Assembly: GCA_043825735.1 (NCBI GenBank)
Contig: JBDRRP010000121.1
Location: forward strand, 62,001-122,349
Reading direction: 5' to 3'
Length of the DNA stretch: 60,349 bases
Source: Pseudomonadota bacterium
GTDB taxonomy: Bacteria; Desulfobacterota; Desulfobacteria; Desulfobacterales; JBDRRP01
Positions 6,001 through 12,000 of the stretch are shown one piece after another (position 1 is the first letter of the stretch; the number at the start of each line of letters is the position of its first letter). Made by a program: the position numbers.

Positions 6001-9000
6001 CTGCGCGGCGCAGATGTTGATCACCTGCTGAATACGGGTGATGCTGGAGGCAAACAGGGCGACGATAATCCTGCCGGGACTTTGAATGGCAATCTTGTGG
6101 ATGGCATCGCCCACTTCCTGGTCCGATATGGTGTAGCCTTCCTTTTCCACATTGGTGGAATCTGACAGCAGTGCCAAAACCCCCTTCTGCCCGCACTGAG
6201 CAAAGCGCCCCACATCCGTCACCAGTCCATCCATGGCGTTGTGACCGATCTTGAAATCGCCGGTATGCACCACCAGCCCCATGGGGGTCTGGATCGCCAG
6301 GCCGATACCGTCCACCACGCTGTGGCTGACGCGGATGAACTCCAGCTCGAAGACGCCCAGCTTGAGAGACTCCCCGGGGTGGATTTCGTGGAGTCCGACC
6401 GGATTGATGGATGGATGCTCGGCCAAGCGATGTTGGACCATCCCAAGGGTGAAGGGGGTGCCGAAGACCGGAACATTCAAATCCTTCAGCAGGTAGGGCA
6501 GCGCACCGATGTGATCCTCGTGCGCATGGGTGAGCACGATGGCGGCCACCTTGTTGCGCTGCTTCTTGAGGTAGCTCATGTCGGGGATGACGTAATCGAT
6601 GCCGAGCATATGCCCTTCCGGAAACATGAGTCCGGCATCGACCACAAAGATAGTATCTTCGTATTCGAAGACCATCATGTTGAGACCGATCTCTCCCAGC
6701 CCACCCAGAGGAATGATTCGCAGCATCTTTAAAGTATCCTTCGCCGATATCGTCAGGCTTTACGCCGGCCTTGAAGTATCGTGAGATCCTCGGAAATCCA
6801 GCCGGCGCTCGGCCATTATGCGTTGATTTCCAGTTTTTCCAGGATGGCGTCAATGACACCGATCACCCAGAGGCACTGCTCCGGGTCGGCATACTGAATA
6901 CACTCGCAGCGGATGCGCTTCTCCGAGCGGACCAGCAGCTCACACACCAAGCGATGTGCCTCCAGTTCAACGGCGAAATAAAAGGCGCCGCAGTCCGGGT
7001 GGGCCAGCTGGGCGCTGCTCAGGTGCTCGGTATCCAGAAAAAGCCAATAGATACCCGCCACCGTGGGGCGATGAAGGTGCGCCTCCAGATACGGTTTCAG
7101 TTTGCCGATGTCGTCGCGGTTGAGTTCATCAATGACGTAGTGCTTCATAAAAGAGACATATACTCGAAGACGCCCAAAAAATCCAGATCACAGACCGGGG
7201 CAAAATGCCCGCTGTAACCGCCGCGGGCCCATGGAGTGAAGGAGGCGGTGAGGCAGGAAAACAAGGGGTGCGCCGCCGCACCCGACGCCCGCTTCTCGCT
7301 GAAACGAAAACCCCGGTTCGCTTCGTGGGCGAACCGGGGGATCATCTGCAGCGATCTGCGAAATTCTAGGTTTCTTCGATTGTGATGGCGCCGGGCTCGC
7401 ACACTTCGACGCAGCTTTCACAACCGAGGCATTCTTCTGCATTCACTGGAGAAGACTTGCCGTCCACGATTTCAAATACTTCTACTGGACATACATCCAC
7501 ACACTCTTCGCAGCCTTCGCATTTCTCTTCATCAACGATCGGATTAAAAGCCATTCCTCAGTCTCCTTTCAAAGTGTTTATTCTTTCACGGGCGGGGCTC
7601 CCGTTACAGCCAATGACGCAAAAGTCCATATATCAATTGAATGGGTGAGTCAAGCATTCATGCGGTTTTTTCAAAGCCCCCCGATATACATTATGATCAC
7701 ATTTAACTAATTATATTTATTGTTATTTTTCATACCACCGCACGATCACCAGATGGCGTTTCGCATCGCCGGCACCGCCCGGTGCCGGCGCGCCGGAACC
7801 ATGCAGCAAACGCTCTGCCGCCGCTCGGGGAGAAACTCCGGGAATCTGCAATAAGACCATCGCCGGTGAAGGCCCCACCGTATCTCCGACTGGCAGATTT
7901 CCGATGCCGTCCAGGCTGTCACCGGTCCGGGTGCCGGCTTCCCTGAGAAGATCATCGAGCTTTCCGGCAAATCCATCGGAGCTAAGGGCACCGCGCGGTA
8001 TCACCCCGATCTCCCGGATCTCGCCAAATACTTCCCGCATCCACGACACCACCGCATCACTGAACGTGACCCACACCCCGGGGACGTGGGTATCGTCGAG
8101 CACCAACCGGCACCATGCCGATATCCACTGCGATGTCATGTGAGCACAGGGATCGATGTCCTGAACCGGGCTGGGCATCCGGGGGAACAGCGCCAGTTCC
8201 GATGGATCCCCGTGAAGCTGCTCAAAGAGCGCGCGCTCGTTTTCAGTGTGCCCGGCCATCGCCGCCTGCAAATCGGCCGTCTCGGTCGCCAATGTCTCTG
8301 CCGCGAGCAGGAAAAGCTGTGCCATGTGCCGGCTGTCATCGATACTTTCCGCGCCGCCGCCGTCTTTTATGGAAAGGATCTGCTCCCGCAGGCGCGCCAC
8401 CGAAGACGCGTCAACCAACGGAGGGATGCCCCGCTGCAGATGCCGAACCCGCATTTCCGTGCCGCGGCAGTCTTCGATCCACTGCCGATAATCGGAAACC
8501 AGCTGCCTGAGGTTGACCCCATCATCGGTCGTGGGCCAGGATATGGCAAGCCGCCGCGCATCCCGCGCGCTGATAAGGTGAGATGGCAGATCGTCGTCGC
8601 TGGCGCACTTGAGGTGGACTTGCTCGAAAACCGCCAAAAGATCGCTTAGGCTTTTTTGCCCGACGCGGGTATGTGGAAAAAGAATCGGCGCCATTGGTGT
8701 GTTTACCATGATCAACGGGTGTCCTCGTGTTTTCGATCCTTGATAAAAATACCCCGTTTCTCCAGGCGACTCCGAATCTCATCGGCCCGCTGCCAGTCTC
8801 GGGCCTGGCGTGCGGCCGTCCGCGCGTTGATGAGGGCCTGAATCTCAGGATCGCTGCTGGGGTCGTCAAAACAGAAAACGCCCAGCACGGTATCGATGCG
8901 CGCCAGGGTGTCCAGTAATTGCCCGGCTTCTTCCCTGTTGAGTCGCCCGTCCTGAAGAAGTCGGTTGATCTTTTTGATGTGGCCAAATACCGATGCCATG

Positions 9001-12000
9001 GCTCTTGACGTATTGAGGTCATCGTCCATGGCAGTGGTAAAACGATTTTTGATGTCGTAATCGAGCTGATCCAAATCCGGTGAAACGCCGCCGGATACCC
9101 CCGGCGCCTGCTGGAGGTCATGGACCACCGCATCCAGACGCTCGAGCGCCTTTCGTGCCAAAAGCAGTCGCTCGTTGGAGAAAACCACCGGTTTTCGGTA
9201 GTGGGTGGTCAGTAGCCAGTAGCGGATCTCCCGGCCGGAAAATCCCATGGCCTCAACATCCCGCAGGGATATGCCGCTGCCCTTGGTATCGATGGCGCGG
9301 CCATTGGTGAGCACGGTGTCGCAGTGCATCCAGTAGCGGGCCAGCGGCTTTCCGGTGGCCCCGTAAGCGATGGCGATTTCATTCTCATGGTGCGGAAACA
9401 TGAGTTCCCGGCCACTGGTGTGAATGTCGAAGGTCTCTCCCAGGGACGTCATACTCATGGCGGCACACTGCAGATGCCAGGAGGGCCGGACATTGCCCCA
9501 GGGGGTAGTGGTGAACAGGCCGCGTTTGAGCTCCGAGAGGGTGGCGCGTTTCAGGAGCGTGAAATCCCGAGGGTTGTCCTTCTCATAGTCGTCAAGATCC
9601 ACGGTGGCCCCGACACGGATTTTCTCCAGATCAATCCCCGACAGTTTCCCGTAACTGCCGAACCGGGAGATATCGAAATACAGCGAGCGCAGCTTTTCGT
9701 ACGCCAGCCCCTTTTTGACCAGTTTGTCGGCCAGTGCCACCATATCGTCGATGTGCTCACTGGCCCGGGGATATTCGGTTGCCGGCTGTACCCGCAGTGT
9801 CTGCAAGTCTTCATGGAAATTGCGGATATGCCGCGCGGTGTATTCTGCCAGAGGCTCACCGGCGCTGTCTGCACCGGCGAAGGTCTTGTCGTCGTAGTCG
9901 GTAATGTTCATGACGTGCCGCACCCGGAGGCCGCGATAGGCCAGATGCCGGCAAAGCAGATCCGAAAACACGAACCGGCGGCAATGTCCCAGATGAATGG
10001 GCTGATTGGCGGTGGGTCCGCAGGTATACACAGACACCTCGCCTGCGGTGAGCGGCTCGAAGGCTTCCTTGTTACGCGAGAGTGTATTGAAAACGGTCAT
10101 GCCCACCGTAGGGCGCACGGCGAACAGCGTCGTACTGAGGTAGCGCTCACCGCCGTCCGGGAAAATGACCACCACCGTGCCGTGGTCCATTTTTTTTGCC
10201 ACTTTGGCGGCGACGGCCATGGCCGCCCCACTGCTCATCCCGACAAAAAGTCCCTCCTGGCGGGCCAGCTGCCGGGTCATTTCAAAAGACTCCTCGTCTT
10301 CGACATTGACTTTTTCATCGAGGCGGTCCTTCTCGTAAATTTCCGGCCGGTAGGCTTCTTTCATATTTTTGAGGCCCTGCAGACGGTGACCGAGATAGGG
10401 TTCCACGCCGATGATTCTGATGTCCGGGCGCAGTTCCTTGAGCCTTCGCGACAGTCCCATAAGGGTGCCGGTAGTCCCCATAGTGGCCACCAGAGCGTCT
10501 ATGGCGCCCTCTGTCTGGGCCCAGATCTCTGCGGCAGTACCCCGATAGTGGGCTTGCCAGTTGGCCGGATTATTGAACTGATCGGCCATGAAATACATGT
10601 CCGGGCTTTCCAGCGCCAGGCGGTACACTTCCTCGATGGCGCCGTCGGTGCCCAGGTGTCCCGGTGTCAGCAGAATGTCCGCGCCCCGCGCCTTGAGAAT
10701 TTTCTGCCGCTCCACGCTGACCAGTTCACTCATGGCCAGAAGGAGCCGGTAACCTTTGACCGAACATACCAGCGCCAGCCCGATACCGGTGTTTCCGCTG
10801 GTCGCCTCGATGACGATTTTTTCCGGAGTCAGTTCTCCGGAAGCCTCGCCGGCCTCAATCATGGCCAACGCCGCCCGGTCCTTGATGCTGCCGCCCGGAT
10901 TCAAGTATTCGAGCTTGGCCAGAATGCGCACTTTCGGGTTGGGCGCCAGGCGCTGAATCTCCACCAGGGGCGTGTTGCCGATCAGGTCTAAAATGGTCGT
11001 GGGCATAGGATTCCCTTCAGTCCCTGCCAGTGGTGGCAGCGCCGGAGTCGGACGGCCTTTTCGCCATCCACCGGTCGATGGCCGCAATGACATCTTGGGC
11101 AACGGCATCGGCTGCTGCAGCCGCATCGATGACACAAAACCGCTCAGGTGCACCGGCGGCCAGCAAACGGTATCCGTCCCGAACCCGGCGATGGAAGTGC
11201 AGGGCTTCTTTTTCGAAACGGGTTTCTTCCCCGGAGCGTTCTCCGTGTTTGACCTGCCGCCATGCACGCGCCAATCCTATCTCAGGGTCGAGATCCAGCA
11301 GGACGGTCAGATCGGGCAGCATCCCGCCAACCGCCGCCTGATGGAGGCGATCCACCGAATCAAGACCCAATCCCCTGGCAAGTCCCTGGTAGACCCGGGT
11401 GGCATCCACGTATCGATCACAGAGCACCACCCGGCCGTCGGCGATCGCCGGTGCGATGACGGTGCGCACGTGCTGCACCCGGTCGGCCGTATACAGCAGC
11501 AGCTCGGCGCCGGGGTCGAGGTCGCCGCTGTTCGGATCGAGCAGGATGGCGCGAATCTGTCGGCCGATGGGCGTTCCGCCGGGCTCACGGGTGATAAGGC
11601 ACCGGCGCCCCTGCTGCTCGAGATGCGCCGCCACGCGCGGCATGAGGCTGGTCTTGCCGGAGCCTTCGATACCTTCAAATGTAATGAACATCGGCGCCCT
11701 CACAGTGGTGCACTGACACGCAACTCATTCGGTGGTTCCAGTGGCACCGGGAACGGGCCAGGCCTTCAGCATGTCTAAAAACCGATAATCGGTAGCGTCA
11801 CAGGATATGGGGGTGATGGCAATGTATTTTTTCTGCAGCACCGAACCGTCAACCTCGCGATCGGCCGTGAAGGTCTGTGCATCACACCCCTGCCAGTAGT
11901 AAGTTCGGTTTCTTGGATCCACCCGTTTTTCAATGGTTTCCGGAAACATTTCAAACCCCTGGCTGGCAAATCGGACACCAGCGGTCTCCCTGACGGGGGC

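Follow-up and report, generated by a model that had tools for sequence, protein, structure and literature searches.

HisZ is an inactive histidyl-tRNA synthetase (HisRS) paralog that works as a regulatory subunit together with HisG, the first enzyme of the histidine pathway. The HisRS-like domain of GCN2 is likewise a dead synthetase fold, which binds uncharged tRNA and switches the enzyme it is fused to (PMC4335047). MshC, the mycothiol cysteine ligase, is a cysteinyl-tRNA synthetase (CysRS) paralog with a function other than translation and is ATP-dependent according to PMC9437257. In Desulfobacterales, a second CysRS-type gene, CysRS*, has been reported (Mukai et al., PMC5389517). CysRS itself has also been linked with PLP and sulfur chemistry: passages of Akaike et al. 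(PMC5660078) attribute a PLP-dependent persulfide-synthase activity to the E. coli and mammalian enzymes that depends on K73, K76, K266 and K269.

Here we describe a cysteine synthase fused to a CysRS-like protein, encoded in a window of 60,349 nucleotides (the whole stretch of Desulfobacterales DNA analysed). Databases label the protein "cysteine--tRNA ligase", and no description of the fusion was found in the literature searched. With slightly less than even confidence, we favour the reading that it is an active cysteine synthase to which a retired CysRS is attached as a sensor of, or dock for, tRNA-Cys, following a logic like that of GCN2 or HisZ. As with HisZ, a synthetase paralog that appears inactive is attached to an enzyme making the same amino acid. 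However, HisZ belongs to another synthetase class without homology to the fusion, is a separate subunit and senses the amino acid, whereas the evidence for the fusion points to tRNA. GCN2 is eukaryotic and joins a class II HisRS-like domain for many tRNAs to a kinase, again without homology; in the fusion, a bacterial class I module with anticodon-specific contacts is joined to a metabolic enzyme. MshC differs as well: its model TIGR03447 gives the fusion 177.5 against a cut-off of 485.1, and MshC chains of known structure match the CysRS-like body over no more than its residues 16-340. In the SepRS/SepCysS system, too, cysteine formation is tied to tRNA-Cys and a PLP enzyme, but its folds are unrelated and the PLP domain of the fusion keeps a loop for the carboxylate of a free amino acid.

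The initial annotation had described a CysK domain fused to a CysRS-like body with DALR_2 and CysS_C domains, and profile searches bear this out. Pfam finds PALP at residues 6-284 (2.1e-72), tRNA-synt_1e at 316-617 (4.8e-78), DALR_2 at 655-711 and CysS_C at 716-760, and the NCBIfam models TIGR01136 (361.3 bits, cut-off 344.15) and TIGR00435 (358.4, cut-off 340) both score above their cut-offs. The synthase half contains SIKDR40, in which the PLP lysine lies, TSGNTG69, GTTGT177 and SSG258; the CysRS half contains CGPT329, HLGH338, WHLQC510, HHENE539 and RAIDT570. The coordinates are collected in Table 1. The sequence GAAGGGA lies 7 nt 5' of the start codon. A longer frame of 851 aa extends into tmk. 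The start of the locus had been placed at 7723, which takes in a separate gene (7723-8709) downstream.

Table 1. Features of the fusion gene, in positions of the window
Feature	Position	Strand	Basis
Whole fusion gene, 764 aa + stop	8712..11006	(-)	ATG (11006) lies 10 nt after tmk
PLP cysteine synthase domain of CysK/CysM type, residues 1-296	10119..11006	(-)	Pfam PALP, TIGR01136, 3zei match, motifs
Short joint, residues 297-302	10101..10118	(-)	fixed spacing; low pLDDT 292-300 in model
CysRS-like Rossmann + CP body, residues 303-617, apparently remodelled ATP site	9156..10100	(-)	tRNA-synt_1e, alignment to 8qhp/1li5, differential conservation
HIGH position (HLGH), residues 338-341	9984..9995	(-)	motif check
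KMSKS position (RAIDT), residues 570-574	9285..9299	(-)	alignment to solved CysRS
Family-specific basic motif of CP domain (R..L.ELKRG), residues 487-496	9519..9548	(-)	conservation
Helical + DALR_2 region, residues 618-715	8862..9155	(-)	DALR_2 2.2e-13
C-terminal CysS_C region with anticodon-contact equivalents	8715..8861	(-)	CysS_C 1.9e-09, conservation

YLST of the CysK half and N307 of the CysRS half stand 14 residues apart in 51 of 67 family members, and a model of the protein has low pLDDT at residues 292-300. Folded as separate chains, the two halves reached a median ipSAE of 0.52 against 0.01 for the best control, a range in which (scores of at most 0.60) the calibration holds only 18 of 157 solved complexes together with both passing mismatches. 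The runs shared at least 88% of contacts with a partner pLDDT of at least 85, and the mark applied is reached by 116 of the 157 solved complexes, along with 2 mismatched pairs out of 215. These predictions weakly suggest a defined contact between the halves.

The fusion design is common in sulfate-reducer-type bacteria. Within the order, matches over about residues 4-757 occur in 120 of 151 genomes, including 98 of the 112 of high quality, with cut pieces at contig ends in 5 more, in agreement with the earlier statement that most Desulfobacterales carry it. In the phylum it is found in 160 of 401 genomes, and the family spans 42-100% identity. In the tree, the CysRS halves from Desulfobacterales fusions group together in a single clade (SH-aLRT 99) that lies outside that of canonical CysRS (100).

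Residues 303-764 align over their full length with canonical CysRS (E. coli CysS 1LI5/1U0B; 8QHP; E 8e-86 to 5e-95), and the window protein shares their domain order, zinc ligands, anticodon contacts and CP-domain core. Unlike canonical CysRS, the fusion is joined to CysK, falls in a separate clade and lacks KMSKS, GGxD and, in most relatives, the fourth HIGH residue. GGxD, HIGH and KMSKS serve the ATP site of class I synthetases. We compared 119 full-length relatives (at least 66% identity) with 84 canonical CysRS. RAIDT aligns with the KMSKS of solved CysRS 8qhp and 1li5, and the reported loss of this motif proved complete, since none of the 119 keeps it (GKKVDE in 75, GKAVDT in 11, GRAIDT in 3). 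In the window protein, a lysine (K575) directly follows RAIDT. The ribose-binding GGxD reads TSGRE in the window protein and TS[SG]RE in nearly all relatives, the K269 equivalent is E, T or D in 108/119, S270 is deleted in 118/119, and acidic D/E stand at positions 268-269, where phosphate would bind. At the HIGH position, HLGE (51), HVGE (43) and HLGH (4) occur, and Glu, again acidic at a phosphate-binding place, is the fourth residue in 109 of the 119. Loss of the fourth His, previously listed as degeneration, is by itself no defect, because among the 84 canonical CysRS, 57 carry N and 27 carry H there (the genome's own CysRS reads HIGN); judged from the alignment, the telling change is that to Glu. 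Among 87 positions at least 85% conserved in canonical CysRS, 66 are also kept in the fusions; the changes include H/N40 to E, G226S, G227S, D229E, M267V, K269E, deletion of S270 and N273A. Replacement residues are conserved in turn (Q513, E534 and I546 in 100%, A333 in 98%). Overall, the ATP site appears to have moved to a new state that is itself conserved.

The zinc ligands C329, C514, H539 and E543 are all present in the window protein. The earlier statement that the zinc/cysteine residues are kept holds for close relatives (C329, C514, H539 and W510 in 119/119, E543 in 106/119; CGPT and WH[IL]QC in 119/119, HHENE in 106/119), but 16 distant members have lost the ligands and still keep the CysK motifs and anticodon residues. 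KMSRS-type motifs are found in members at 49-57% identity. By these comparisons, the catalytic pocket seems to erode in one lineage after another, with the protein itself being retained.

These data bear on the possibility that the fusion is a slow or specialised CysRS in which fresh cysteine is handed to the charging site by substrate channelling, which we regard as unlikely. HLGH, the four zinc ligands, K575 and the TIGR00435 score would allow residual activity in the window protein and speak against our preferred reading. In addition, some members combine KMSRS with HLGN or HIGL (P0124, P0282, L094, L096, L120, L121), a fusion in a Nanoarchaeota MAG (P0126) has fully canonical HIGN/KMSKS and lies inside the canonical clade, and cysK and cysS overlap in a Patescibacteria MAG (L174), so that cysteine synthesis and charging appear to have been linked more than once. 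However, the missing KMSKS, Glu at the fourth HIGH position, the acidic residues at 268-269, the replacement of GGxD and the retention of the protein in lineages without the cysteine-selecting zinc ligands all argue against channelling. In the own genome and in 10 of 10 other carriers tested, there is moreover a canonical CysRS that outscores the fusion, and five of these 11 have fusions with KMSRS-type or near-KMSRS motifs. The earlier view that the protein is no spare CysRS is therefore upheld.

In contrast to the catalytic motifs, the tRNA contacts hardly vary. R729, R733, W738, D742, R745 and D757 are the counterparts of E. coli R423, R427, W432, D436, R439 and D451; 118-119 of 119 fusions have equivalents of R423, R427, D436, R439, G446 and D451, and 117 have that of W432. 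RRWDRD-type strings persist with only K/F/Y swaps in distant members down to 42% identity, the exception among those tabulated being a truncated second copy (L127) without the string. According to PMC12684709 and PMC13449415, structure 1U0B links R427, D436, W432 and R423 to G34, and R427, W432, D436 and R439 were used to re-aim anticodon specificity. G466 of the acceptor-stem loop (E. coli G166) is 99% conserved. A family-specific basic motif (residues 487-496) takes the place of the canonical W-K..K.GEP segment; in 67 diverse fusions, R487 is 100% and L493, K494 and G496 are 96-99% conserved, the latter three being positions at which at least 90% of canonical CysRS have a gap. Because the anticodon contacts stay fixed while HIGH, KMSKS and the zinc ligands decay, the CysRS half is probably conserved for binding tRNA-Cys rather than for cysteine activation or zinc-cysteine binding. 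The family-wide contacts thus lend support to the docking of tRNA-Cys on a sulfur enzyme suggested by the initial annotation.

In the CysK half, the closest solved structure is O-acetylserine sulfhydrylase 3zei (1e-75), and the PLP and substrate motifs are those of CysK/CysM enzymes (3ZEI, 2JC3). The fusion differs from these by its 460-residue C-terminal tRNA-synthetase-like body and scores below the equivalog cut-offs for CysK (316.8 vs 350.95) and CysM (345.1 vs 394.2). The CysK motifs are kept in 119/119 close relatives and in every distant member examined; one lineage has SSGNTG instead of TSGNTG as its Asn loop. In CysK, this loop clamps the free alpha-carboxylate and would be ill-suited to an esterified substrate. 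Constraint is strongest in the CysK half (102 of 296 positions at least 95% conserved in the 67 diverse fusions, compared to 39 of 315 for Rossmann and CP). No CysK/CysM-family match (E <= 1e-30) besides the fusion occurs in 6 of 10 other carriers examined, each at least 97% complete, so that it must supply free cysteine there; three of them (G027, G191, G460) have fusions without zinc ligands.

We propose that the CysK/CysM-type half is an active cysteine synthase permanently joined to a retired CysRS paralog that would have given up activating cysteine by ATP. The anticodon-binding domain and acceptor-stem loop would grip tRNA-Cys(GCA), and since the whole tRNA path is kept, the 3' end of the tRNA would be expected to arrive in the remodelled pocket that was once the active site. 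Most likely as a built-in sensor or docking module, the CysRS half would adjust how fast cysteine is made to the state of tRNA-Cys, for instance if uncharged tRNA-Cys stimulates the synthase. Against a sensor role, neither a regulatory partner nor a conserved operon was seen, and neighbours outside the order are unrelated housekeeping genes. A tRNA-binding module could also compete at some cost with the real CysRS for tRNA-Cys, which is encoded by a single gene in the own genome.

Alternatively, sulfur chemistry could take place on or beside the tRNA: cysteine or persulfide could be made on tRNA-Cys, or Cys-tRNA-Cys modified or proofread by the PLP domain. The kept anticodon contacts and acceptor-stem loop, a PLP enzyme only 14 residues away and the published persulfide-synthase activity of CysRS would fit, as would the sulfide-rich lifestyles of the mostly DsrA-positive carriers (136/160 vs 69/241 non-carriers, confounded by kinship). 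We nevertheless consider it improbable. A SepCysS-like conversion on the tRNA, as initially suggested, is disfavoured because the Asn loop holding the free alpha-carboxylate never varies, and SepRS and SepCysS were not found in the own, 100%-complete genome. The proposed persulfide synthesis is weakened by the replacement of K76 (D/N/A) and K269; in the fusion, the PLP site is that of a true CysK domain. The 16 members without the zinc pocket that might hold a thiol and the sole-CysK carriers argue in the same direction.

That cysteine bound at the zinc site feeds back on the synthase, as histidine does via HisZ, is quite improbable in our view. The near-invariant zinc ligands and W510 of close relatives would suit such a cysteine sensor, but 16 more distant members retain CysK motifs and anticodon contacts without the ligands, and it does not explain why the acceptor-stem loop and six residues touching the anticodon should stay family-wide. 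An inert relic that merely scaffolds folding or oligomerisation of CysK is scarcely credible: the catalytic motifs do drift lineage-specifically, L127 has lost its C-terminal domain and has an altered PLP-lysine motif, and order members without the fusion have standalone CysK orthologues (54-56% identity), but across order and phylum all listed matches except one (in-frame TAA in G067) have an uninterrupted, full-length frame, and a conserved anticodon-reading surface with a gained basic motif would be unexpected for a passive scaffold.

As the initial annotation stated, the genome also encodes an ordinary CysRS (contig C53, HIGN/KMAKS), CysK and CysE, the cysE-like gene adjoining cysK on C67 and scoring below the curated cut-off (165.7 vs 210.65). 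CysRS*, on C107, follows a tRNA(UCA) that has A1:U72, as well as a SelB-like gene. It keeps HLGH/KMSKS, has no anticodon domain and is unfused, whereas the fusion shows the opposite, with the anticodon domain kept and the catalytic motifs lost.

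The window encodes a 764-aa fusion protein for which the best-supported account is that of an active cysteine synthase joined to a retired cysteinyl-tRNA synthetase (CysRS) that would still bind tRNA-Cys. Its start codon lies 10 nt past the end of the thymidylate kinase gene tmk and 7 nt past the sequence GAAGGGA. The 851-aa frame listed for this gene was rejected because its upstream part overruns tmk, and the range proposed in the initial annotation, which began at position 7723, takes in a separate downstream gene. The N-terminal half scored above the cut-off of the cysKM subfamily model TIGR01136 (361.3 bits, cut-off 344.15) and its best solved match is the O-acetylserine sulfhydrylase 3zei (1e-75). 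Assignment to CysK or CysM at the equivalog level failed (TIGR01139, 316.8 vs 350.95; TIGR01138, 345.1 vs 394.2; NF008735, 331 vs 413). The C-terminal half contains the full CysRS domain order of tRNA-synt_1e, DALR_2 and CysS_C in Pfam, aligns end to end with the solved CysRS structures 8qhp (5e-95) and 1li5 (8e-86) and lies just over the cut-off of the cysS model TIGR00435 (358.4, cut-off 340), of which positions 1-459 of 466 are covered.

Features of the fusion gene, its product and the genes downstream
Feature	Position	Strand	Remarks
Fusion gene, 764 aa	window 8712-11006	-	start ATG 11006
PALP domain	residues 6-284		Pfam, 2.1e-72
tRNA-synt_1e domain	residues 316-617		Pfam, 4.8e-78
DALR_2 domain	residues 655-711		Pfam
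CysS_C domain	residues 716-760		Pfam
Gene for a 328-aa protein	window 7723-8709	-	starts 3 nt past the fusion stop
62-aa ferredoxin, two 4Fe-4S motifs	window 7366-7554	-	downstream of the 328-aa gene
110-aa protein, no Pfam family	window 6816-7148	-	between ferredoxin and RNase J

The motifs of the CysK half are all present in the fusion, namely the PLP lysine in SxKDR, the Asn loop TSGNTG, the phosphate loop GTxGT and SSG. We compared the protein with a close set of 119 relatives, all full-length and at least 66% identical, taken from the best 120 matches after one 615-aa fragment had been dropped; SxKDR, TSGNTG and SSG each occur in 119 of 119. If conservative variants are allowed, the CysK motifs are kept in the whole close set and in all tabulated distant members except one second copy, and the sole further variation in the family is a T/S exchange in the Asn loop of one lineage. 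The exception is a second, 725-aa fusion copy (L127, G092:C44) with 53% identity, in which the PLP-lysine motif is altered to SIKFR and the anticodon residues fail to align; it has the look of a duplicate in decay. For 6 of the 10 carriers tested, all of them at least 97% complete, the fusion was the sole match to the CysK/CysM family at E <= 1e-30, and three of these six fusions lack zinc ligands in the CysRS half. The best-supported account of the N-terminal half is an active cysteine synthase, which would combine O-acetylserine or O-phosphoserine with a donor of sulfur.

In class I synthetases the ATP site is made up of the HIGH, GGxD and KMSKS motifs. The reference was a set of 84 canonical CysRS sequences: E. 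coli CysS, the CysRS of this genome and 82 cluster representatives in which the motifs are intact. K266 and K269 of the KMSKS loop are invariant in canonical enzymes, K269 being found in 84/84. The fusion reads RAIDT at this position, and none of the 119 relatives keeps KMSKS (GKKVDE in 75, GKAVDT in 11, GRAIDT in 3), in agreement with the initial annotation. The GGxD motif preceding FPHHENE (G226 100%, G227 95% and D229 98% in the canonical set) is TSGRE in the fusion, with G226 and D229 each kept in 0/119. At the HIGH position the fusion has HLGH, which recurs in only four relatives (HLGE in 51, HVGE in 43), so the fourth histidine is indeed mostly gone. Its absence is in itself no defect, since this residue is asparagine in 57 and histidine in 27 canonical enzymes, with HIGN in the CysRS of this genome; the telling change is glutamate at the fourth position (HxGE in 109/119). 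Both phosphate-binding motifs turn acidic in the fusions. Overall, of 87 positions conserved in at least 85% of the canonical enzymes, the fusions retain 66 and alter 21 (119 vs 84 sequences). The altered positions include V32A, Y33H, W184L, W194T, E208Q, G226S, G227S, D229E, Q241I, M267V, K269E, the deletion of S270 and N273A; H/N40E was counted apart as its position falls short of 85% conservation among the canonical enzymes. Conservation is likewise high for the new residues across the fusions (Q513, E534 and I546 of the fusion in 100%, A333 in 98%); these positions have moved to a different conserved state and are not decaying at random.

With such an ATP site the CysRS half has presumably lost tRNA-Cys charging. 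The first rival explanation holds that it retains residual charging combined with cysteine channelling. In its favour, some fusions of 49-57% identity carry KMSRS together with HLGN, HLGV or HIGL. The catalytic pocket varies by lineage, and one family of small genomes has KKLSS at the KMSKS position. On the other side stands the coexistence with an ordinary enzyme: the genome does contain a canonical CysRS on another contig (C53), as the initial annotation had stated, and in 10/10 other carriers tested a canonical CysRS outscored the fusion, so that both coexist in 11/11 genomes. A second rival explanation is that the fusion performs sulfur chemistry on tRNA. The persulfide-synthase activity of CysRS is described as depending on K73, K76, K266 and K269 in the accessible part of PMC5660078, and the equivalents of K76 and K269 are not retained in the fusions.

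A third rival explanation, that the CysRS half senses cysteine at the zinc site, draws on the ligands C28, C209, H234 and E238 of the canonical enzyme. They correspond to C329, C514, H539 and E543 of the fusion and are present in 106-119 of the 119 close relatives (CGPT 119/119, WH[IL]QC 119/119, HHENE 106/119), which bears out the earlier claim of their retention for close relatives, but in 16 distant members they are fully lost, as in TGPP / WHIAA / HLENV. These 16 comprise 10 loci, three representatives and three loci of Desulfovibrionales type. They come from a family search with one representative per 50%-identity cluster, which turned up fusions between 42% and 59% identity, and from a motif table of 48 of 80 fetched loci (those parsed by a simple motif filter), seven representatives, 21 further loci and nine named loci. 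Among 67 distinct, diverse fusions, positions of at least 95% conservation number 102/296 in the CysK half, 39/315 in the Rossmann/CP part and 8/49 in the anticodon domain. As the CysK motifs and the anticodon residues are fixed and the pocket varies, selection holds the synthase and the tRNA-binding path constant. It does not do so for cysteine activation nor, across the family, for the zinc-cysteine pocket.

The residues expected to contact tRNA-Cys are conserved. In the accessible parts of PMC12684709 and PMC13449415, R427, D436 and W432 recognise G34 in the E. coli CysRS-tRNA-Cys structure 1U0B, R423 belongs to a hydration network, and R427, W432, D436 and R439 were used to alter the anticodon specificity of CysRS. 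All six anticodon-binding residues (R423, R427, W432, D436, R439 and D451) are kept in the fusion. Equivalents of R423, R427, D436, R439, G446 and D451 occur in 118-119 of the 119 relatives and that of W432 in 117, and the string RRWDRD runs through the distant members with only K/F/Y swaps. The glycine of the acceptor-stem loop (E. coli G166) is 99% conserved in the 67 diverse fusions, and the canonical W-K..K.GEP gives way to a basic motif peculiar to the family, R..L.ELK[RK]G. We infer that the CysRS half still binds tRNA-Cys. An inert scaffold, the weakest rival explanation, would agree with the lineage-specific drift of the catalytic motifs and hardly with anticodon contacts held so constant.

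Regarding the arrangement of the two halves, an AlphaFold2 model of the fusion (39-row alignment) reached a mean pLDDT of 84.4 and a pTM of 0.69, with low confidence in the stretch 207-221 and the joint 292-300. The joint is 14 residues long in 51/67 fusion members. The protein is probably assembled around a CysK dimer. When the halves were folded as separate chains, the median ipSAE was 0.52 vs 0.01 for the best control, at least 88% of contacts agreed between runs and the partner pLDDT was at least 85. In the calibration of this tool the mark was reached by 116/157 solved complexes and 2/215 mismatches, and scores of 0.60 or below came from only 18 of the 157 solved complexes and from both passing mismatches. 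A defined contact between the halves is thereby weakly supported, and since they are covalently joined, contact is already likely and separate-chain folding adds little.

Taken as a retired CysRS on an active cysteine synthase, the fusion would most likely tie the making of cysteine to the state of tRNA-Cys, judging by analogy. What a sensor of this kind would need is found here: a lost ATP site, retained tRNA contacts, a fixed short joint and a tentatively predicted domain contact. A retired, anticodon-specific CysRS fused to a cysteine synthase would read the charging state of tRNA-Cys, and cysteine supply would track translational demand without a transcription factor or riboswitch. We put forward only tentatively, as a possibility less probable than its opposite, that this is a bacterial metabolic enzyme gated directly by a specific tRNA, in which a cysteine synthase reads tRNA-Cys charging via the retired CysRS. 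In a bolder variant, the 3' end of the tRNA would itself take part in sulfur chemistry at the remodelled pocket, as substrate or as cofactor. If the sensor reading is true, this would be a prokaryotic enzyme of biosynthesis controlled by a dead synthetase domain that senses a specific tRNA. The principle is known from two systems, whose likeness to the fusion lies solely in how they work. HisZ on HisG is a precedent for regulation by a dead synthetase that senses an amino acid rather than a tRNA. In eukaryotes, the HisRS-like domain of GCN2 is a tRNA sensor according to the accessible part of PMC4335047.

Being the only cysteine synthase in 6/10 carriers, the fusion bears on the control of cysteine in sulfide-rich cells of the sulfate-reducer type. 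Databases label such proteins 'cysteine--tRNA ligase' or 'cysteinyl-tRNA synthetase'; such a name is probably wrong for their function and keeps the cysteine synthase out of sight when metabolism is reconstructed. Natural sequences run from KMSKS by way of KMSRS and KKVDE to a pocket that is lost altogether, a series of variants ready to be tested. No CysK-CysRS fusion is described in the full text of the open-access literature searched (supplements aside), and the accessible parts of PMC2922099, PMC8762117, PMC5389517 and PMC9437257 make no mention of one; the last, a 2022 review of synthetase paralogs, names for CysRS only CysRS* and MshC in its accessible part.

Neither paralog accounts for the fusion. 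MshC was rejected by score (TIGR03447, 177.5 vs cut-off 485.1). CysRS*, the second CysRS-type gene of Desulfobacterales, is characterised in the accessible part of PMC5389517 by the absence of an anticodon domain, an altered CP1 motif and a position after selC*-selB*. The fusion has an anticodon domain and a canonical-type G-A loop and follows tmk, and CysRS* is encoded on contig C107. There, at about 92540-95830 (L002), a tRNA(UCA) with A1:U72 and U73 is accompanied by an ORF resembling SelB and, overlapping it, a CysRS of 417 aa that has HLGH/KMSKS and whose C-terminus is short, an arrangement matching the selC*-selB*-cysS* order in the part of PMC5389517 available. The true tRNA-Sec (G73) is separate, on contig C62, and the genome has one tRNA-Cys(GCA), with G1:C72 and U73. 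SepRS/SepCysS was not found in the 100%-complete genome (TIGR00470, best match 30.9 bits; TIGR02539, no match). Of the separate CysE and CysK reported earlier, cysK was recovered on contig C67, beside a gene that is only cysE-like.

Within the order Desulfobacterales, a match over about residues 4-757 occurs in 120/151 genomes (98 of the 112 of high quality), and five more contain fusion pieces cut by contig ends. Across the phylum, the fusion was matched at E <= 1e-120 in 160/401 genomes. Named records include Desulforapulum autotrophicum, Desulfatibacillum, Desulfobacula, Desulfocapsa, Desulfopila and Desulfocurvus, MAGs of Desulfovibrionaceae and a protein of Desulfovibrio ferrophilus that has no zinc ligands. 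We did not adopt a link to dissimilatory sulfite reduction: DsrA was matched in 136/160 carriers vs 69/241 non-carriers, an association only and confounded by kinship; 24 carriers had no DsrA match.

The locus layout in the order is surE, tmk (13/21), fusion, a gene of about 330 aa (17/21), the 62-aa ferredoxin (13/20) and RNase J, and it is not kept outside the order. The 330-aa gene, represented in the window by that of the 328-aa protein (P0002-like family), follows the fusion here and in 16/20 other loci of the order. Members of the family share the conserved N-terminal motif PIYFPFT and match no Pfam family. An AlphaFold model (pLDDT 75.7, pTM 0.74) gave nothing in Foldseek at E <= 0.001, no usable match in the Atlas and a best Z of 5.7 in VIA-align, covering long helices only and amounting to no convincing fold match. 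We rejected this protein as a partner of the fusion and consider the linkage positional: its gene is found in 136/151 genomes of the order, including the fusion-less G059, G124, G029 and G015, and in 40 loci outside the order it is not adjacent to the fusion, except for an upstream copy in L092. No conserved operon partner was found outside the order, where neighbours are pyrB/pyrC-like, lpxC, panE-like and similar. Because the neighbourhood is lost outside the order and the 330-aa gene occurs in fusion-less genomes, no functional partner can be read from context. The 62-aa ferredoxin shares 66-89% identity in 13/20 loci of the order, and the '88-aa ORF' on the plus strand (7382-7648) is no more than the antisense shadow of that gene. 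The 110-aa protein is found with 43-52% identity in 6/20 loci. Rfam gave no family at gathering score anywhere in the window (1-60349). In 9/20 loci of the order, a 315-335-aa protein with OB-fold (tRNA_anti-codon) and HD domains is encoded between surE and tmk (L036 at 4354-5298, L038-L040, L047, L049, L050, L052 and L053); it is absent from the window.

A quick IQ-TREE analysis of 90 CysRS bodies (LG+G4, SH-aLRT support only), from which five of 95 rows were left out (one with short coverage, four without a long enough alignment), placed all canonical enzymes in one clade (support 100), among them E. coli CysS, this genome's CysRS and CysRS*, and 11 stand-alone CysRS from the order. A separate clade (support 99) holds the fusion bodies of Desulfobacterales, the KMSRS-type fusions branch without resolution between the two, and a long branch leads to the Desulfovibrio-type bodies. 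A 768-aa fusion of a Nanoarchaeota MAG (P0126) with HIGN/KMSKS falls inside the canonical clade and thus represents an independent fusion. A Patescibacteria MAG (L174:989-3276) shows another independent linkage, in which cysK (291 aa) overlaps a canonical cysS (501 aa) in a different frame. This genome's CysRS* falls together with the 11 stand-alone CysRS from other members of the order (support 84). The housekeeping CysRS of the genome (C53, L001:1456-2892, HIGN/KMAKS) lies apart from them and groups with other representatives; this placement may reflect a gene replacement.
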